Part shown: positions 3,367 to 15,564 of the stretch, one piece after another
Layout of the letters: every line of letters starts with the position of its first letter
Position numbering within the stretch: the first letter of the stretch is position 1
NCBI RefSeq assembly: GCF_044324875.1
Contig: NZ_CP172185.1
DNA: 64,000 nt
Direction: 5' to 3' (one strand)
From: Escherichia coli
GTDB taxonomy: Bacteria > Pseudomonadota > Gammaproteobacteria > Enterobacterales > Enterobacteriaceae
Made by a program: the position numbers and the translations under genes
Notes under the pieces: generated by a model
The model's input: only the letters and a program-made list of their open reading frames with translations
Databases searched by the model: none
Told to the model about the DNA's origin: nothing

Positions 3367-4089
3367 TTAAACGATGCGGCAGGCGTCGGCTTCCCAGCGG
3401 TAACCGACGCCGTAAACGGCACGGATAAAAGACTGTTCGGCGTCGAGAGATTCCAGCTTGCGACGCAGGTTTTTAATGTGGCTGTCGATGGTGCGGTCGG
3501 TTACTACGCGGTAGTCGTCATAAAGATGATTGAGCAATTGCTCGCGGGAGAACACTTTTCCTGGTTCATGAGAGAGCGTTTTCAACAGACGAAATTCCGC
3601 AGGCGTCAGGTCAAGCATTTTACCGCGCCATGAAGCCTGAAAACGACCTTCGTCGATAATCAACGGGCTTTCGGCATCCTGTTGCTGAAGTTCGCGTTGC
3701 GGTTTGCAACGGCGCAAAATGGTTTTGACGCGCGCTACCACTTCCCGTGGGCTGTACGGTTTGCAGATGTAGTCATCTGCGCCAATTTCCAGCCCCAGCA
3801 GGCGGTCGATCTCTTCGATTTTTGCTGTCACCATCACGATCGGAATGTCAGAAAAACGACGAATCTCCCGGCACAGCGTCAGGCCATCGGTGCCAGGAAG
3901 CATAAGATCCAACAGAATCAGATCCGGTGGTGTCTGGCGTACATATGGCAGTACCTGATCGCCGTGGCTAATCAACGTTGGCGCATAGCTCGCAGCACGC
4001 AGATAATCAATGAGTAACTGCCCCAGCTTCGGTTCATCTTCCACGATCAAAATACGCGGTGTGTTTTCGTCGATTGGTAACTCGGTCAT
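3367..4089 (-). CDS. baeR: OmpR-family response regulator BaeR
   Basis: 240-aa ORF with receiver domain ([13 protein letters not shown]..., [14 protein letters not shown]) and winged-helix C-terminus. Overlaps the upstream kinase gene stop by 4 bp. Confidence 0.95.
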
Positions 4090-5489
4090 ACTTCTCTCTG
4101 TAAATCCCGTTCCAGCGGTAACTCTACTGTAATGCTTACCCCGCCAAAAGGCGAATGGGCAGCAATAATGCGACCATTATGTGCTTCAACAATGTTCAGG
4201 CAAATCGCCAGCCCCAGCCCGGAACCGCCGCTGGCTCGGTTGCGGGAACCTTCGGTGCGATAAAAACGTTCAAACAATTTTTGTAGCTGATCGTCACTGA
4301 CGCCCGGCGCGCTGTCGGCAAAGGTCAGTCGCACCGTTTTGTCGTGCTGCTCGGCAGAGATTTTCAGGCTACCGCCGCTGTCAGTGTAGCGCAGGCTGTT
4401 TTCCAGTAAGTTATTGAATAACTGCATTAAACGGTCGCGATCGCCAAATACGGTAATACTGTCTGGCAGGGAAAATTGCAGTTTCAGGCCACGGCTGGCG
4501 AATCGTTCGCGAAATGCGCCGCCCGCCACTTCCAGCAGTGGGATCAAATCTACCGGTGCTTTTTGATAGGCGAGAGCGCCTTCATCAGACATCGACAACT
4601 GATGGAGATCGTCAACCAGTTTGGTCAGTGTACCGACCTCCGCCTGTAAAGACGCCACCGTCTCCGGCGTGAATTTACGCACGCCATCCTGAATGGCTTC
4701 CAGTTCACCGCGCAGCACCGCTAATGGCGTACGCAGTTCGTGAGAAATATCGGCCATAAAATCGCGCCGCATTTGCTGGTTTTTCTCCAGCGTGCTGGCA
4801 AGCTGGTTGAAGTCTTGCGCCAGTTTGCCCAGTTCATCTTCACTGGTGGGTGTCACGCGGGTAGTGAAATCGCCCGCCGCCAGTTTGTGCGTGCCGTCCA
4901 CCAGCCGTTTGACCGGGGCCAACAGACCACGCGCCAGCAGAAAGGTGGCGAGTGCCGCGAGTAACGTAGCCAGGGCGACAATCAGCCAGCTGGTTTGCCG
5001 CTGTTGTTTATCGAAATTGATATCAGTATTGCGGGTCAGTCGCTCAACAGGGGAGGCAATCACCGCACCCACTTCCGCACCGTTGACCAGAATGGGTCGC
5101 CGTGTACCGTCAGGTGGAATCGGCGCTCGCGGACCAACCAGCACTTTGTTGTTTTGATCGATCACCCAGAACTGAGTACGCCAGCCGTGCGGAGGCATAC
5201 CCGGGCCGGGTTTATCTTCCGAATTATCGTGTTCAAATGAACGCAGGATCTGAAAGACAAAGCGATCGTTGTTGCGCAGGAAGCGCCAGTTGCCATGCTG
5301 CGCATACTGCTCGCCAAGCGCATCACTTAACAGCTGTAATCGCTGTTCATTGCCGTGTTTGATGTAATCAATAAAGCCACGCTCAAAACTGATACGCACC
5401 GCCCAGTGCATACTGATCAGCAAGACAATGCAGGTGGCGAAAATCGCCAGAAACAGTTTGCCGGTAATACCGGGTCGCCAGAACTTCAT
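4086..5489 (-). CDS. baeS: envelope-stress sensor histidine kinase BaeS
   Basis: 467-aa ORF with N-terminal TM segment, HAMP, H-box (SHELRTPL) and HATPase motifs (GGSGLGLAI). Confidence 0.95.
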
Positions 5490-6901
5490 TGCGCGCTCCT
5501 TTTTCGCCGCGAAATAGCTACATTTTGATGCGTATCGTTCGGCACTCTGGCAAAGATGAACGCCGGAAGGGCGATGATAAACGCCATGCTAAGCCAGGTG
5601 TACATAAAGACGGTTTGTGTGGTGCCGCTGTCGACGCTGACATGCTGCGAACCAAAAAGTCCCAGCAACAGCCCGGCGATAGTGACGCCGATACTCATCG
5701 ACAATTGCATAATCATCGACAGCAGGCTGTTTCCGCTGCTCGCCAGATTGTCCGGGAGATCTTTCAGCGTCAGGGTGTTCATGGAGGAGAAACGGGTCGA
5801 GTTGACCATCCCTTGTAAAAACAGGACGAACGGCAAAACGTAGTACCAGCCCAACAGAGCGGTAGTCATAAACAATAGGGTGACCAGCGACAGACCCAGC
5901 GTGGTCGCTACCAGTACCCGACGATAACCAAAGCGATTCACTACCTGTACCACAATTCGCTTCATCCCCATGCTGCCGAGCACCATCGGGATCATCATCA
6001 GTCCGGCATGAAACGGTGAGAAGCCAAGGCCAATTTGCAGGAAAACCGGCGTCATAAAGGGCAACATGCCGCTACCGATACGTCCGGCAAAACTCCCCGC
6101 CAGGCCCAGCGAAAAGGTACGAGTACGGAACAGTTTCAGACTGAAAAGAGCGCGGTTGTTATTTCTGGCGTGCAGCAGATAAAGCACCAGTGCTACCACG
6201 CCAACTGCGACCAGGCCAGCAATCGCCAGCGGCGATAAACCTGTACCTTTACTGCCGTCCAGCGCCAGGGTTAATACCGCCATGCCAACCGCCAGCAATA
6301 AAAAGCCGGAGAGATCGAAGCGCCGCGTCTGCATGGTATAGTTCGGCATTAACATCAATGTGGCGATCGCGCCAATAATCCCCACCGGAATGTTGATTAA
6401 AAAGATCCAGTGCCACGACGCATATTCCACCAGCAGACCGCCGAGCGCCGGACCGAGCAGCGGACCGACCTGACCGGGTAACGTGACAAAGGTCATCGCC
6501 GCCATATACTGCTCGCGCGGTACGATTTTCATCACCGTCAACCTGCCGACCGGCACCATCATCGCACCGCCAACGCCCTGTAACGCGCGTGCCAGCAACA
6601 GTTCGTTCAGCGTGCCGGAAAGCGCGCAAAACAGTGAACCGAGAGTAAACAGTACGATGGCGGTAAAGAAAATATTGCGCACGCCGACTTTGTCCGCCAG
6701 CCAGCCGCTGGCGGGCAGCATCACCGCCACGGTCAGCACATAAGAGACAATGACCATGTGCATATGCAACGGACTTTCCCCGAGGCTTTGCGCCATTGAG
6801 GGAAGGGCGGTGTTTACGATGGTGGTGTCCAGCGACTGCATAAAGAAGCCGAAAGCCACAATCCACAATTGCCAGCGGGTGCTGTCGGGAAGATCTGTCA
6901 T
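5486..6901 (-). CDS. mdtD: MFS transporter MdtD
   Basis: 471-aa polytopic membrane protein with MFS-type motifs, located between mdtC and baeS as in the known mdtABCD-baeSR operon. Confidence 0.93.
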
Positions 6902-9900
6902 TTACTCGGTTACCGTTTGTTTAGGTTTACGCGAAAAACGCAGCCGCAGACGGTCGAAAAAGAGATACACCACCGGCGTGGTATACAGCGTCAGAAGCTG
7001 GCTCATTACCAGACCGCCGACAATGGTGATCCCCAGGGGTTGCCGCAGCTCCGAGCCGTCACCGCCCGACAATACCAGCGGCAGCGCACCAAACAGCGCC
7101 GCCAGGGTAGTCATCATAATCGGGCGAAAACGCAGCAGACAGGCCTGGAAAATAGCTTCCTGCGGCGTGAGGTTACCGTGCCGTTGGGCTTCAAGCGCAA
7201 AATCGACCATCATAATGGCGTTTTTCTTCACGATGCCGATTAATAGCATGATCCCTATCAGGGCGATTAGGCTGAACGGGGCATTGAACAGCTCCAGCGC
7301 CAACAGCGCTCCAACGCCCGCCGAGGGCAGGGTGGAGAGAATCGTCAGCGGATGTACGTAACTCTCGTAAAGGATACCCAGCACGATATACACCGTGGCG
7401 ATGGCGGCGATAATCAGGATCACCTGCGAGTTCATCGTCTCCTGGAACACCTGCGCCGTGCCGGCAAAACTACCGCGCACCGTCGAAGGCACACCAAGCT
7501 GGGTCATTGCGCGATCGATCGCCGCACTGGCGTCCGAGAGCGATTTCCCGGTCGGCAGGTTAAACGAAATGGTCGAGGCCGCCGATAATCCCTGATGATT
7601 CACCGACAGCGGAGCATTCGCCGGTTGCCATTTAGCGAAATACGACAGCGGGATCGCTTTTCCTTCGTTATTGATAACGAACATTTTTTCCAGCGCACTG
7701 ATGTCCTGGGTATAGCGCGGATCCACTTCCATCACCACTTTATACTGGTTCATCGGCTGGTAAATGGTCGAGATTTGTCGCTGACCGAAGGCGTTATTTA
7801 ACAGGCTGTTGGCGGCCTGCACGTCGATTCCCAGCCGTGCCATAGTGTCGCGGTCGTAAACCAGATTCATCTCCGCGCCGTTATCCTGCTGGTCGGAGTT
7901 CACGTCCGCCAGTTCCGGCAATGTCGCCAGTTTTTTGCGGATTTTCGGTTCCCATTCGCGCAGTGCCGCCAGGTCGTCGGACAGTAACGTGTACTGATAG
8001 CTGGCGTTCGACTGACGTCCGCCAACGCGAATATCCTGTACCGCCATCAGGAACAGATTCGCCCCTGGTTCTTTCGCCAGCTTCACGCGCAGACGGTCGA
8101 TAATTTGCTGCGCCGTTTCGCTGCGTTCGCCGCGTGGCTTGAGGGTGATAAACATCATCCCGCTGTTCACCCGCGAACCGCCGGTAAATCCGGTGACATT
8201 ATCCACTGCCGGATCGTCACGGATAATTTTCATGAAATCCTGCAACTTACCGCGCATCGCCTGAAACGAAATACTCTGATCCGCCTGTATCCCGCCCATC
8301 AACACGCCGGTGTCCTGCTCCGGGAAGAAGGTTTTCGGGATCGAGATATACAGCCAGATATTCAAAGCAATGGTGCCAAGCAGCACCACGCCCACCAGAC
8401 GGGTATGATTAAGCCCCCATTTCAGCGACTTACCATAGCCTTGTTGCAGGGCTACCAACATGCGACCAAAACCACGTAGTCGCTTTTGCTCGCGCGGCTT
8501 GCTGGCTTTTAGCATCCAGCCGCACATCATCGGCGTTAGCGTCAGGGAAACCAGCAACGAAATCCCAATGGCGACAGAAAGCGTCACGGCAAATTCGCGT
8601 AACAGTCGGCCCGGCAATCCGCCCATCAACAGCAGCGGCAGGAACACCGCCACCAGTGACAGACTCATCGACAGCACCGTAAAACCGACTTCGCGAGTGC
8701 CTTGCAGCGCGGCCTGTAGCGGTTTCATCCCCGCCTCCAGATGACGGGCGATGTTTTCCAGCACCACGATGGCGTCATCCACCACGAAACCAGTAGCGAT
8801 GGTGAGCGCCATTAACGAAAGATTATTGAGACTGAATCCGCACAGGTACATCGCCGCAAACGTACCAATCAGCGAAACCGGCACCGCAACGGCGGGAATA
8901 ATAGTGGCGCGACCCGAGCGCAGGAATAAAAAGACCACCAGAATGACCAGCGCCACCGAGATAATCAGCGTTTGCTCGACTTCCTCCAGCGAGGCGCGAA
9001 TAGTGGGGGAGCGATCCTGGGCAATTTGCAGATCAATCGCCGCCGGAATGGTCTCCTGCAACTCCGGTAATTTTGCCCGGATGCTGTCAACCGTCTGGAT
9101 AATATTGGCTTCCGGCAGCTTGCGGATCATCAGCAAAATAGCCGGTTTGGCGTTGGTCATCCCGGCGTTGCGCACATCCTGCACTGAGTCGGTCACCGTC
9201 GCCACATCGCCCAGACGAACCGCGCCGCCGTTGTTGTAATGAATAATCAGCGGCTGATATTCAGCGGCGGTTTTCAGTTCATCGTTAGTCTGGATCTGCC
9301 AGCGGTGAGTGCCATCTTCCAGCGCCCCCTGCGGTTTACGCACGTTGGCATTGCTGATGGCAGTGCGAACATCGTCCAGCGACACGCCCTGATTAAACAG
9401 CGCCTGCGGATTCAGCCCGACGCGTACGGCGGGCAGTGAGCTGCCGCCGACATCGACATCACCAACACCGTCGATTTGCGAAATCGTCGGAGCCAGCTGC
9501 GTCGAGGCGAAATCGTACAGTTCACCCTGCGAATAAGTATCGGATGTCAGCGTGAGGATCATTATTGGCGCATCCGACGGGTTCGCTTTGCGATAGGTCG
9601 GACGGCTTGGCATCCCGCTGGGCAGCAAACTTTGCGCGGCGTTGATCGCCGCTTGCACATCGCGCGCTGCGCCGTTGATATCGCGGTCAAAATCAAACTG
9701 CAAAATAATGCGCGTGCTGCCGAGCGAACTGCTGGAGGTCATTTCACTGACCCCGGCAATGCGCCCAAGTGAGCGCTCCAGCGGCGTGGCAACGGAAGAC
9801 GCCATTGTTTCTGGTGACGCACCGGGCAGCGAGGCGCTGACCATAATCACCGGAAAATCGACCTGCGGCAGCGGGGCGACCGGCAGCATACGGAAGCCCA

Positions 9901-9979
9901 GTATGCCGCACAGGGTAATGGCGACCGACAGTAAAATCGTCGCCACCGGGCGGTAAATGAAGAGGGCAAAAAACTTCAC
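6902..9979 (-). CDS. mdtC: RND multidrug efflux permease MdtC
   Basis: 1025-aa ORF with the typical RND/AcrB-family N-terminus [25 protein letters not shown] and 12-TM/large-loop architecture. Confidence 0.95.
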
Positions 9980-12900
9980 TTACGCCTCCTCTTCATGACG
10001 AGCAAAGCGGCTTTTGGTCCACAATGCCAGGCGGTCGAATAGCAGATAAATCACCGGCGTGGTGAACAGCGTCAGCACCTGGCTGACAATCAGACCGCCG
10101 ACCATGCCGATACCTAACGGACGACGCAGTTCCGCGCCGACCCCGGTACTCAACATCAGCGGCAGCGCGCCAAGCAGAGCCGCCAGGGTGGTCATCAGGA
10201 TCGGACGAAAACGCAACAGACAAGCCTGGTAGATTGCATCGCGCGGCGACATGCCTTGCTCGCGCTCAGCAGCCAGCGCGAAGTCGATCATCATGATGGC
10301 GTTCTTCTTCACGATACCGATCAGCAAAATAATGCCGATAATTGCAATCACATCCAGTTCGCTACCGGCAATCATTAACGCCAGCAGTGCGCCAACACCT
10401 GCCGTGGGTAGCGTCGAGAGAATGGTGATCGGGTGAATAAAGCTCTCGTACAGAATGCCGAGCACGATATACATCGCCACCACCGCCGCGACAATCAGCC
10501 AGACAGTGCTGCCCAGCGCCGACTGGAAAGCGAGGGTGCTGCCCTGGAACTGCGTGGTGATATCCACCGGCAGATTCAGCGTCTTTTCGGTGTCCATAAT
10601 CGCCTGCACCGCATCGCCCAGCGAATAGTTATCCGGCACGTTAAAGGAGATAGTCGTTACCGGGAACTGATCCAGATGGTTGATGGAGAGCGGCGCAAAA
10701 CGCTGCTCAATTTTGGCAATTGAGCTTAGCGGCACCACGCCGCCGTCGCTGCTGGTCAGGCGAATGGTATCCAGCGCCGCGAGGCCTGGGGTATTTTCGG
10801 TGTTGTGTTCCAGCACCACGCGATACTGGTTAGCCTGAGTATAAATAGTGGAAATCAGCCGCTGACCAAACGCGTTGTACAGGGCGTTATCGACATCCGC
10901 CATGCTGATCCCCAGACGGCTGGCGCTGTCGCGATCAACATTGACATACGCCACCAGCCCTTGGTCCTGCCAGTCGCTGGAGACATCAGAAAGCTGTGGC
11001 AACTGCTGGAGTTTTTCCATCAACTGTGGCACCCAGGTACTGAGCGCATCCAGTGACGTGGCCTGCAAGGTAAACTGGTACTGGGTGCGGCTGACCTGAG
11101 TATCGATGGTCAGGTCCTGCGTTGGTTGCAGGAAGAGATCGACGCCCGGCACTTTATCCACCGCCGTTTGCAGACGGGCGATGACTTTTTGCACCCGGTC
11201 ATCTCGTTCATCCAGTGGTTTGAGATTGATCTGTAAACGCGCACTGTTCAGCGACGGGTTAGTGCCATCAACGCCAACAAATGAGGTCAAACTTTGCACT
11301 GCCGGATCCTGCAAAATCACGTCCGCGACCTGGCGTTGCCGCTGGGCCATATTGGCAAAGGAGCTGGATTGCGGTGCCTGCAAAGTGCCCTGAATAATGC
11401 CGTTGTCCTGCACCGGGAAGAAACCTTTCGGAATGAACACCCACAGCAGCACGCTAAGCAGCAGCGTGCTGAGTGCCACGCTTAAGGTCAGCCACGGATG
11501 ATTCAGCACTTTCGCCAGTCCACGACCATAGGCGGCGATTATCCTGTCGAACATTTTCTCCGAGGCTCGGGAGAAGCGATTCTGTTTACGCAGCGACTCC
11601 TGGCTGAGCATCCGCGCGCACATCATCGGCGTCAGAGTCAGCGACACCACGGCTGAGATCAAAATCGCGACTGCCAGAGTAATAGCAAATTCGCGGAACA
11701 GTCGCCCGACGATATCGCCCATAAATAGCAGTGGGATCAACACTGCAATCAGTGAGAAGGTCAGCGAGATAATGGTAAAGCCGATTTCACCCGCGCCTTT
11801 GAGCGCCGCCGCCAACGGTTTTTCGCCTTTTTCGATATAGCGGGAAATGTTTTCGATCACCACGATGGCGTCATCGACCACAAATCCGGTGGCGATAGTT
11901 AACGCCATCAGCGTCAGGTTATTGATTGAAAAATCGAGAAACACCATGACCGCGAAGGTGCCGATTAACGACAGCGGCACTGCGACGCCGGGAATGATGG
12001 TCGCCGGAATATTACGCAAAAACAGGTAGATAATCATGACTACCAGCGCGATAGCCATCATCAATTCAAACTGAGTATCATCGACGGATGCGCGAATATT
12101 GGTGGTACGGTCAGAAAGTACTGTCACCTTCACCGATTTCGGCAGACTCTCGGTGAGCTGTGGCAGCATCTGCCGGATGCTGTCGGCGGTGGAGATAATG
12201 TTAGCACCGGGCTGGCGCTGAACATTCATCACAATGGCCTGTTCTTTGTTCGCCCACGCGCCGAGCCAGCTGTTTTCTGCTCCTTGCTCTACGGTTGCGA
12301 CATCGCCCAGACGAATCGGCGCGCCGTTCTGGTAGGCGATGATTAGCTGGCGATACTCTTCGGCGGATTGCATCTGGTCGTTAGCGGAAAGCGTAACCGC
12401 ACGGGAAGGGCCGTCGAGGCTACCTTTTGCCGAGTTAACGTTAGCGCCGGTAATGGCGGTGCGCACGGTTTCGCTGGTCAGGCCGAGGGCGGCAATCGCC
12501 TGAGCGTTAAGTTTGACGCGAACAGCCGGACGCTGGCCGCCGGAAAGCGTCACCAGGCCGACGCCGGAAATCTGCGAGATTTTCTGCGCGACGCGGGTTT
12601 CCACCATATCTTCCACTTGCGTCATCGGCATGGCGGTTGAGGTGACGGCGAGCGTCATGATTGGTGGATCTGCCGGGTTCACTTTGCTGTAAACCGGCGG
12701 GTTAGGCAGATCGCTCGGCAACAAGTTGGTCGCAGCGTTAATCGCGGCCTGCACTTCCTGCTCGGCGACATCGAGCGGTAATGTTAGCTGGAACTGCAAA
12801 GTGATAACTGACGCACCGCCGGAACTTTGCGACGACATCTGTTTCAGGCCAGACATCTGCCCAAACTGGCGTTCAAGCGGCGCGGTAACGGCAGAGGTCA

Positions 12901-13102
12901 TGACATCCGGGCTCGCACCTGGGTAGAGCGTGACTACCTGAATGGTCGGATAGTCCACTTCCGGCAGCGCCGAAACGGGCAGGGCTCGATAACCGATAAT
13001 CCCGGCGAGTAAGATCGCCACCATCAGCAGCGTGGTGGCGACAGGACGCATAATAAACAGGCGCGACGGGCCGCCTGTGCTGCTCGGGGGTAACACCTGC
13101 AT
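9980..13102 (-). CDS. mdtB: RND multidrug efflux permease MdtB
   Basis: 1040-aa ORF, RND family, immediately upstream of mdtC (adjacent stop and start). Confidence 0.95.
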
Positions 13103-14349
13103 CAGGAGCGTGCTCCTTTTTTCGCGTATTCGCGGCTGGTGGCTTTCTCTTCCGGAGTGGTGGCGCTCTGGGCTTCCACTACTTCCACTTTCGCCCCTTC
13201 GGTCAGGCGATCAATGCCGTCCGTCACTACGCGGTCGCCCGCAGAAATACCTGCGCGGATCACCACTTTCTGACTGTCCTGAATGCCCGGCGTCACCAGA
13301 TGTTTGCTGACCTTGTTTTCGCTATTCAGCACCCAGACAAAATGGCCTTCGTTGCCCATTTGCAGAGCGGCGGTGGGGATCACCACGGCGTTTTGTTCGG
13401 TGTCGACTAACATACGCGCGTTAACAAACTGATTGGGAAACAGCGCATCATCCTGATTATTAAAGCGGGCTTTCACTTTAATCGTACCGGTAGTGGCATC
13501 GATTTGGTTATCGAGACTTAACAGCGTGCCTTCACTTAATTTCTTCGAGTTGGTGCGATCCCAGGCTTCAACAACCAGCGGTTTTCCGGCTTTTTGCGCC
13601 TGTACTACGGTAGCGATATCGCTTTCCGGCAGGGTAAAGAGCAAATCGATAGGATGCGTCTGGGTGATCACCACGATCCCGGTGGTATCACCACTGGAGA
13701 TTTGGTTACCAACATCAACCTGCTTGAGACCAACGCGACCATCAACTGGTGCAGTAATACGGCTCCAGTCGAGTTGCAGCTGCGCGCTGGCGACGCTTGC
13801 TTCATCAGCCTTAATGGTGCCTTCGGTTTCACTGACCAGCGCTTGTTGGGCATCCAGTTCCTGACGAGATACGAGATTGGTTTTTGCCAGTTGCTGATAA
13901 CGCGCCAGGTCACGGCGGGCGTTGGCAAGCGTGGCTTTATCTTTTGCCAGTTGGCCCTGGGCTTGTGCTAATGCAACTTTGAACTGGCTGGGGTCAATTT
14001 CTGCCAGTAAATCGCCTGCTTTGACCTGCTGGCCTTCCTGGAAATGTAACGCTATCAGTTGGCCGTCCACGCGGCTGCGCACCGTAACGGTATTAGCGGC
14101 GGTAATGGTGCCAAGCCCGGTGAGGTAACGCGGAACTGCCTGTTCTACGGCGGTCGCCGCCTGAACCGGGGCTAATGGGCCGGAACGCATACCACGGCGA
14201 CCACCCGCTGGCGATTGCTGCGCTTGTTTCGTCGCCCCTGGGGCTGCACTCCGGGAGTCATTGCGGCCTTGCCAGAACCAGAATGCGGCGATGGCGGCGA
14301 TAACCACCACGATTACGATTACCCAACGGGATTTATAACTGCCTTTCAT
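13102..14349 (-). CDS. mdtA: RND efflux membrane-fusion (periplasmic adaptor) protein MdtA
   Basis: ORF track gives 13102..14496, but the internal ATG at 14349 yields [25 protein letters not shown] (415 aa), matching recalled MdtA. Long coiled-coil/lipoyl-type adaptor region. The N-terminal extension was rejected. Confidence 0.9.
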
Positions 14350-14402
14350 CGTTAAGAGTTTCTCTTCCTGAAACGTTTCGCGGAATGATACTAGTGTAGC
14401 CA

Positions 14403-14420
14403 GCCAATAAGGGAGAAAAA
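14403..14420 (-). promoter_or_regulatory. candidate BaeR-binding box in the mdtA promoter
   Basis: Minus strand reads TTTTTCTCCCTTATTGGC, a near match to the published BaeR box TTTTTCTCCATDATTGGC as I recall it, about 55-70 bp upstream of the mdtA start. Confidence 0.5.
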
Positions 14421-14585
14421 TGGAGGAATTATGAAACACTGTCGGGAATCGTCTGAATGACGGGCACATTTGCGAGCACGCATCCAGTAATAACACATGA
14501 AACTATTTTATCTACGCGTTAGCGATAGACTGCTTGCATGGCGAAAGGAGGTAAGCCGACGATTTCAGCGGGACGCTGAAACGGG

Positions 14586-14727
14586 AAAGCCCCTCCCGAG
14601 GAAGGGGCCTTAAATAAGGAAAGGGTCATGATGAAGTGGATCATCATCGTGGTGCTCTTAGTGATTAGCTACCCAGCATACTAAGACTACCAGGGCGGGG
14701 GAAACCCCGCTCTACCCTCACTCCTGA
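14586..14727 (-). ncRNA. Sib-type antisense sRNA (antitoxin) covering ibs copy 1; ends approximate
   Basis: Sib RNAs are known to be encoded fully antisense to ibs ORFs. A GC hairpin at 14589..14610 on the minus strand is followed by a short T run and could be the Sib terminator. The 5' end is not determinable from sequence. Confidence 0.45.
14628..14684 (+). CDS. Ibs-family type I toxin (18 aa, MMKWIIIVVLLVISYPAY)
   Basis: ATGATG start preceded by aaggaaaggg; 18 hydrophobic codons then TAA; sits inside repeat unit 1. Matches the Ibs toxin family pattern. Confidence 0.75.
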   Translation: MMKWIIIVVLLVISYPAY

Positions 14728-14913
14728 AAGTATGCCTTCACGATAAGATTGTCAATCTGCAGGCTTTGCAGTCTGCGATCCTGCCAGCAAATATTCTTTG
14801 CGAGACGTTACGCAATAATCACACTGGAAACTATTTTATCCGCAAGTCAGCGATAGACTGCATACAGGGCGAAAGGAGGTAAGTCGACGATTTCAGCGGG
14901 ACGCTGAAACGGG

Positions 14914-15055
14914 AAAGCCCCTCCCGAGGAAGGGGCCTTAAATAAGGAAAGGGTCATGATGAAGCTACTCATCATCGTGGTGCTCTTAGTCATAAGCTTC
15001 CCCGCTTACTAAGACTACCAGGGCGGGGGAAACCCCGCTCTACCCTCACTCCTGA
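14914..15055 (-). ncRNA. Sib-type antisense sRNA covering ibs copy 2; ends approximate
   Basis: Placed by position equivalence with copy 1 within repeat unit 2. Confidence 0.45.
14956..15012 (+). CDS. Ibs-family type I toxin (18 aa, MMKLLIIVVLLVISFPAY)
   Basis: Same architecture as copy 1, in repeat unit 2. Confidence 0.75.
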   Translation: MMKLLIIVVLLVISFPAY

Positions 15056-15242
15056 AATTATGCCTTCACGATAAGATTGTCAATCCGCAGGCTTTGCAGT
15101 CTGCGATCCTGCCAGCAAATATTCTTTGCGAGTCGTTACGCAATAATCACAGAGGAAACTATTTTGTTCACGCGTTAGCGATAGACTGCATTCAGGGCGA
15201 AAGGAGGTAAGCCGACGATTTCAGCGGGACGCTGAAACGGGA

Positions 15243-15385
15243 AACCCTCTCCCGGAGAAGAGGGCTTTTAATAAGGAAAGGGTTATGATGAAGCACGTCA
15301 TCATACTGGTGATACTCTTAGTGATTAGCTTCCAGGCTTACTAAGAACACCAGGGGGAGGGGGAAACCTCTCCCTAACCCTCACT
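15243..15385 (-). ncRNA. Sib-type antisense sRNA covering ibs copy 3; ends approximate
   Basis: Placed by position equivalence. Hairpin ccctctcccggagaagaggg replaces gcccctcccgaggaaggggc of unit 1 with compensatory changes. Confidence 0.45.
15285..15344 (+). CDS. Ibs-family type I toxin (19 aa, MMKHVIILVILLVISFQAY)
   Basis: Same architecture in repeat unit 3. Flanking hairpins differ in sequence from units 1-2 but keep complementarity. Confidence 0.75.
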   Translation: MMKHVIILVILLVISFQAY

Positions 15386-15564
15386 CCTGAAATTATGTCA
15401 CTCCGCCCTTAGTGTCAATCGACGGCTCTCCGTTCTTGCGAGGCGAATAGCAAAATTTTCTGCGCCGCCGGGCCTAATTCTGAAAGTTGCTTTGCCTGCT
15501 CATATTTCATTGTTGCAGTCGGTATGATACCGGACCTCAATAATTCTCTAAGAAAGGATTTCTT

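Follow-up and report, generated by a model that had tools for sequence, protein, structure and literature searches.

At promoters controlled through a Pho box, tandem direct repeats take the place of the -35 element upstream of a good -10 hexamer, and PhoB and OmpR contact RNA polymerase in this region of the promoter. For BaeR, which belongs to the same regulator family, Nishino et al. in 2005 reportedly drew a consensus from expression data and not from footprints, and Baranova and Nikaido in 2002 are said to have shown a gel shift. The consensus, 5'-TTTTTCTCCATDATTGGC-3', is credited to Nishino et al. 2005 in two later papers (PMC3799227 and PMC3915751), in which genomes were scanned with it for BaeR targets (e.g., Salmonella sodA and Erwinia acrD). 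A footprint-derived BaeR box, TCTNCANAA, which is 9 nt long with 7 specified positions, is attributed to Yamamoto et al. 2008 in PMC3799227. Our search of the literature for a footprint or direct-repeat account of BaeR sites returned a single paper (PMC10052836), which concerns DzrR. This OmpR-family regulator, most closely related among characterised proteins to AdeR, has the domain architecture of BaeR (REC plus Trans_reg_C), and its DNase I footprint covers two CTCCAT repeats 11 bp apart. Binding in vivo has been mapped by ChIP-exo in MG1655 under ethanol stress; of the 21 BaeR peak rows, the two that stand highest by signal-to-noise belong to mdtA, namely peak_5 (2153931-2153967, S/N 10.96) and peak_6 (2153972-2153998, S/N 14.99) (PMC7657598, Data Set S2).

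In the window, by which we mean the whole 64,000-nt stretch of Escherichia coli DNA that was analyzed, the minus strand from 14420 to 14403 reads TTTTTCTCCCTTATTGGC. This 18-mer agrees with the Nishino consensus at 17 of 18 positions, the sole mismatch being a C for A at position 10, and a consensus search allowing up to three mismatches found no other site in the 64 kb. By chance, at the base composition of the window, 2.9e-4 matches with at most one mismatch would be expected on both strands of the 64 kb; over an E. coli genome the figure was 0.02, and for the 300 nt ahead of a single given gene it was 7e-7. With the mdtA ATG at 14349-14347 on the minus strand, the box lies in the sense orientation at -71 to -54 relative to this codon, upstream of a BaeR-activated gene and on the same strand. 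The first-pass annotation had pointed to a minus-strand sequence just upstream of mdtA that closely matches the BaeR consensus, and direct reading of the sequence agreed on both counts; its description of the box as near-consensus was slightly too modest, as the 18-mer is the reference mdtA site of K-12.

The same 18-mer occurs in K-12 MG1655 at 2153945-2153962, which means that we are looking at the reference mdtA site itself and that mdtA ordinarily has C at position 10. All 53 nt from the box to the mdtA ATG are identical between the window and K-12, the nearest difference being one SNP about 24 nt upstream of the box (14444, C here and A in K-12). The whole box falls inside peak_5 (PMC7657598), and our statement that BaeR occupies it in vivo is taken from this peak on the identical K-12 sequence. 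Expression data for a K-12 baeR knockout under ethanol showed log2 changes of -4.0 for mdtA, -3.8 for mdtB, -3.6 for mdtC, -3.4 for mdtD/iceT, and -4.6 for baeS, i.e., drops of about 10- to 25-fold (PMC7657598). Since mdtA through mdtD and baeS all depend on BaeR, control of the whole operon is supported, autoregulation included. As the BaeR operator of the mdtA promoter, the 18-mer has already been described, and it is unchanged relative to K-12; the autoregulated envelope-stress control of mdtABCD-baeSR that had been proposed from the sequence gains support from the K-12 identity, peak_5, and the knockout RNA-seq (PMC7657598).

The genes that this operator would serve are all present downstream (Table 1). 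The stop and start codons of neighbors among the six ORFs touch or overlap, and the region is 100% identical to that of E. coli O158:H23 strain CFIAFB20140388, in which mdtA, mdtB, mdtC, mdtD, baeS, and baeR are annotated. MdtA, MdtD, BaeS, and BaeR scored above NCBIfam equivalog or subfamily cut-offs; for BaeR the match to equivalog NF007982 (450 bits against a cut-off of 380) indicates that the cognate winged-helix response regulator is present, and PhoB was its third-best NCBIfam match. With six full ORFs, touching or overlapping junctions, and gene names that agree with the annotation, the operon is intact, as the first reading had it, and the strain carries an intact BaeSR-MdtABCD envelope-stress and efflux circuit.

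Table 1. Positions in the window of the mdtA operator, its promoter, and neighboring genes
Feature	Position	Strand	Remarks
BaeR box, Nishino register	14403..14420	-	1 mismatch; identical in K-12; within K-12 ChIP-exo peak_5
Candidate half-site R1, TTTCATAATTC	14426..14436	-	Outside the 18-mer; 1.1-2.0 bits per column in 79 unique Enterobacteriaceae sequences
Candidate half-site R2, CTCCATTTTTC	14415..14425	-	Most conserved element; 11 bp after R1
Candidate half-site R3, CTCCCTTATTG	14405..14415	-	Core of the BaeR box; 10 bp after R2
Putative -10, TATCAT (5/6 to TATAAT)	14385..14390	-	In CTAAACTAGTATCATT; 1.6-2.0 bits; predicted
Equivalent of K-12 peak_5	14398..14434	-	Coordinates carried over by K-12 alignment
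Equivalent of K-12 peak_6	14367..14393	-	From K-12 alignment; over core promoter and likely start site
mdtA	13102..14349	-	415 aa; ORF, annotation of identical genome, NCBIfam
mdtB	9980..13102	-	1040 aa; ORF, annotation of identical genome
mdtC	6902..9979	-	1025 aa; ORF, annotation of identical genome
mdtD/iceT	5486..6901	-	471 aa; ORF, annotation of identical genome, NCBIfam
baeS, sensor kinase	4086..5489	-	467 aa; ORF, annotation of identical genome, NCBIfam
baeR, response regulator	3367..4089	-	240 aa; ORF, annotation of identical genome, NCBIfam
Sib RNAs	14613-14755, 14941-15083, 15270-15418	-	Rfam SIB_RNA
Ibs ORFs, e.g.	14629-14685	+	Three Ibs toxins annotated in identical genome

On the other side of the promoter, between yegL and mdtA, there are three tandem modules of Sib antitoxin RNA and Ibs toxin (139-150 bits each against Rfam SIB_RNA). 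K-12 has two modules here, sibA/ibsA and sibB/ibsB, and strains differ in the number of modules in this type I toxin-antitoxin array (1-8 matching places per genome). In K-12 the start of the mRNA for the mdtA-proximal ibs toxin follows TAATAACACAGGAAACTATTTTATCTACGCGTTAGCGATAGACTGCTTGCA (Kim 2012 supplement), which corresponds with one mismatch to plus-strand sequence of the window ending near 14538 (14488-14538). This placement puts the divergent ibs promoter roughly 70-130 nt from the BaeR box and separate from it.

Within E. coli the promoter hardly varies. Of 5426 complete genomes, 5416 have a 66-nt segment of it, with identity never below 95%, and 5293 E. coli records match the window exactly over a 40-mer that takes in the box and its upstream neighbor. 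The 18-mer itself was near-invariant across 5409 genomes, and the sole other common allele, TTTTTCTCCCTGATTGGC (116 of about 5416 genomes), carries a T to G change at 14409, the degenerate D position of the consensus. Some natural variants were seen further out: Escherichia albertii has TTAGC and a divergent E. coli group (the E69 lineage) has TTGAC, each with one G of TTGGC changed, and these two lineages together with one further locus have TAACAT instead of TATCAT as the -10-like hexamer. These natural variants of TTGGC and of the hexamer could be ready-made tests of both elements.

A different distribution of conserved positions appeared across genera. From a scan with MdtA using one genome per species we collected 80 Enterobacteriaceae loci with 79 unique upstream sequences from about 20 genera (including Escherichia, Citrobacter, Enterobacter, Klebsiella, Raoultella, Kluyvera, Lelliottia, Atlantibacter, Buttiauxella, and Cedecea), and when these were anchored on the -10-like hexamer the alignment was gap-free. 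Among the 79 sequences the zone 14436-14416 (TTTCATAWTTCCTCCATTTTT) was almost invariant, with 1.6-2.0 bits in most columns; the zone 14415-14403 (CTCCCTTATTGGC), which is the 3' 13 nt of the box, was variable (0.2-1.0 bits); and position 14402 and the zone 14399-14384, which contains the -10-like hexamer, were almost invariant again. Across genera only the 5' TTTTT of the 18-mer is conserved. The full 18-mer is kept in Escherichia only, Citrobacter typically having TTTTTCTCCCTTGTTCGC (3 mismatches), and elsewhere the best match to the consensus has, in most genera, at least five mismatches and lies about 10 bp upstream, on an invariant CTCCAT. In every aligned species CTCCA and TATCAT were separated by 30 nt. 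Most of the operator's deeply conserved core (14436-14416) is outside the 18-mer, and beyond Escherichia and Citrobacter the orthologous mdtA promoter shows no conservation at 13 of the 18 consensus positions. A further block at 14445-14458 on the minus strand, cATTCAGACgATTCC, showed 1.0-1.5 bits across genera; it lies upstream of the repeats described below and outside peak_5, holds an imperfect repeat (ATTCAGAC and ATTCCCGAC), and coincides with a -35-like TTCAGA.

In the 130-nt promoter there are exactly three instances of the motif YTYCMT, starting at 14436 (TTTCAT), 14425 (CTCCAT), and 14415 (CTCCCT), from which we infer a division into three phased, CTNCAT-like direct half-sites, R1, R2, and R3, with spacings of 11 and 10 bp. 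As 11-mers, R1 and R2 are identical at 7 of 11 positions and R2 and R3 at 8 of 11. At least two similar direct half-sites 10-11 bp apart are expected of an operator of the OmpR/PhoB type, and such half-sites are found at mdtA. The BaeR box opens with the T-rich tail of R2 (5 nt), and in this register the published 18-mer consists of that tail, R3, and GC. R3 is conserved only in Escherichia and partly in Citrobacter, while R2 is the invariant CTCCAT onto which the best matches of other genera fall. The 18-mer probably covers no more than the promoter-proximal end of a longer operator made of tandem repeats, and given the poor conservation of the consensus across genera, a half-site model of CTNCAWWWTT at 10-11 bp may transfer better between them.

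Two other BaeR targets were compared with mdtA. The sequence upstream of K-12 spy carries TTTTTCTCCATAATTGGC and that upstream of acrD carries TTTTTCTCCACGATTGGC, and alignment of the three boxes gave 15 of 18 positions common to these unlinked targets. Both boxes have TTTTTCTCC-N3-ATTGGC identical to mdtA, and the differences are in the core, which is CTCCCT in mdtA, CTCCAT in spy, and CTCCAC in acrD. Placement differs as well: the spy box is about 139 nt before the spy ATG and well upstream of its core promoter, whereas a -10-like hexamer follows the mdtA and acrD boxes after 12-14 nt. A phylogenetic footprint upstream of spy, for which the protein search yielded mainly Salmonella, covered E. 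coli, Salmonella, and Citrobacter; in all three, AATTGGCG, a segment of the box, was invariant, and two substitutions fell in the CTCCAT core.

The ChIP-exo peaks at spy form a two-peak pattern like that of mdtA, with peak_1 on the core promoter. A perfect match to the Nishino consensus at 1825764-1825781 is flanked, and not covered, by the spy peaks at 1825677-1825711 and 1825823-1825843. The second of these, peak_2, reads CATAATCTCTGCAAAATCATC; taken with the two bases 5' of the peak, it has TTCATAAT-NN-CTNCA in common with R1-R2 of mdtA (13 of 15 positions), the TTCATAAT part being within R1. Peak_2 has an 11-bp direct repeat of its own (CTTCATAATCT and CTGCAAAATCA, 8 of 11 identical) and contains TCTGCAAAA, a perfect match to the Yamamoto box. 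At the specified positions of that box the mdtA half-sites matched at 5 of 7 for R3 (TCTCCCTTA), 4 of 7 for R2 (CCTCCATTT), and 5 of 7 for R1 (GTTTCATAA). In the BaeR ChIP-exo peaks at tnaA and intF we found neither CATAAT-NN-CTNCA nor a phased CTNCAT.

The arrangement of these elements suggests how the operator may work. The candidate -10, TATCAT, begins 12 nt after the box, and neither the promoter scan nor the alignment found a recognisable -35 before it. Two genome-wide data sets were consulted for the mdtA start: the Cappable-seq supplement had no entry near 21539xx-21540xx, and the only start assigned to mdtA in the Kim 2012 data is 646 nt upstream and by its position is a Sib sRNA start. 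This is unsurprising for a promoter that is silent without induction; because no mapped transcription start was found, the mechanism of activation is one that we infer. Transcription would be expected to start near 14378, about 7 nt after the -10, which would place the box at about -42 to -25, R3 at about -37 to -27, R2 at about -47 to -37, and R1 at about -58 to -48. In our model BaeS would phosphorylate BaeR, an OmpR/PhoB-type regulator, under envelope stress, and phospho-BaeR would bind head-to-tail on the tandem half-sites R1, R2, and R3. The repeats would then sit just upstream of and over the position of the absent -35, ahead of a good -10, and bound BaeR would recruit RNA polymerase; peak_6, which covers the equivalent of 14393-14367, would fit a crosslink through polymerase at the core promoter. 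Since baeS and baeR are the last genes in the same transcript, activation would amount to positive autoregulation. The 11-bp direct repeats of spy peak_2 and of the DzrR box (PMC10052836) fit this picture; against it stand the weak conservation of 14415-14403 beyond Escherichia and Citrobacter, the lack of overlap between the spy peaks and the Nishino-register box, and the match of R3 to TCTNCANAA at just 5 of 7 specified positions. We put the probability of this explanation as a whole, i.e., the known BaeR operator acting through tandem repeats that replace the -35 and activate mdtABCD-baeSR, with putative half-sites, -10, start site, and polymerase contact, at about 0.9.

The conservation pattern also allows for R1 and R2 (14436-14415, TTTCATAATTCCTCCATTTTTC) to be the primary, ancestral BaeR dimer site, with CTCCCTTATTGGC a lineage-specific accessory, either a third half-site or a tuning of the spacer or -35 region. 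The near invariance of 14436-14416 beside the variable 14415-14403 in the 79 sequences from about 20 genera favors it, as do the best consensus matches of Enterobacter, Klebsiella, Raoultella, Kluyvera, and others, which fall on R2 with at least five mismatches; the 13 of 15 positions that spy peak_2 has in common with R1-R2, together with its perfect match to TCTNCANAA; and the 11-bp period of R1 and R2, which is that of the DzrR box (PMC10052836). However, the identity of TTTTTCTCC-N3-ATTGGC at three unlinked E. coli targets is hard to explain without selection, the center of peak_5 (about 14416) lies between R2 and R3 and not between R1 and R2, and the AATTGGCG segment is invariant upstream of spy in the three genera. 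We regard a primary role for the upstream pair as a tentative proposal, somewhat short of even odds, and we would place at a similar level the narrower statement that the conserved BaeR element is the 11-bp repeat pair TTTCATAWTTC-CTCCATTTTT (14436-14416) and that CTCCCTTATTGGC is a recent third half-site of Escherichia and Citrobacter. If true, this would mean that the common consensus over-weights lineage-specific positions and misses BaeR sites in other Enterobacteriaceae. The upstream pair and the textbook box can both be accommodated if BaeR occupies R1, R2, and R3 together.

The conserved sequence that overlaps the box and extends upstream of it could in principle have a role unrelated to BaeR, either as a second sigma-70 promoter or in the translation of a tiny ORF on the plus strand, as its ribosome-binding site and start; we consider this very unlikely. 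On the mdtA strand the promoter scan did identify TTCAGA-N18-CATAAT (14457-14428, 9 of 12 matches) with both hexamers in conserved columns, but one such match is within the expectation from shuffled sequences (0.5 +/- 0.7), and this candidate was rejected as not significant. A start from it would moreover leave the box inside the leader, at odds with BaeR as an activator, and the BaeR peak at spy has the same CATAAT without a -35-like hexamer at an 18-nt spacer upstream. As for the ORF, the reverse complement of the repeats reads GGAGGAATT-ATG-AAA, which is Shine-Dalgarno-like and opens a 9-codon frame behind GGAGG (14431-14460, plus strand, MKHCRESSE), and its first nine residues are loosely similar across genera; however, its length ranged from 6 to more than 100 codons, so the position of the stop is not conserved, and there was no third-position conservation pattern, nor any pattern by codon position that would mark it as a gene. 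We rejected it; the frame probably arises incidentally from the conserved DNA motif. That the box is a chance resemblance, or a site of some other envelope-stress regulator such as CpxR, is scarcely credible: CpxR has been reported to influence mdtA (background in PMC10052836; RegulonDB list), but the chance expectation is that given above (2.9e-4 per window), a search of 14350-14600 found no GTAAA-N5-GTAAA at two or fewer mismatches, and CpxR ChIP-exo lists no peak at mdtA against two for BaeR (PMC7657598). A CpxR site is excluded by the consensus search and the ChIP-exo data.

Read as a BaeR operator of tandem half-sites, the mdtA promoter can be set beside each of the described systems. The Yamamoto 2008 box TCTNCANAA is equivalent to the initial eight bases of such a half-site preceded by a T, and its CTNCA core recurs in mdtA at a phasing of 10-11 bp, TCTCCCTTA being the counterpart within the 18-mer. 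The DzrR box of Dickeya and Burkholderia, N5-CTCCATC-N2-A-N-CTCCAT-N2-T, is likewise built of direct CTCCAT repeats about one helical turn apart and likewise lies upstream of RND efflux pump genes (desAB), but DzrR is not an orthologue of BaeR (deletion of baeR had no effect there) and is reported to act independently of phosphorylation (PMC10052836). With Pho box promoters, whose regulator PhoB is of the same family, mdtA would share a like arrangement, as predicted above, while differing in the sequence of the half-sites and in having three phased half-sites instead of two. The closest counterpart is the BaeR site of K-12 mdtA (yegM), which has the same 18-mer at the same -71 to -54 position and the same operon downstream.
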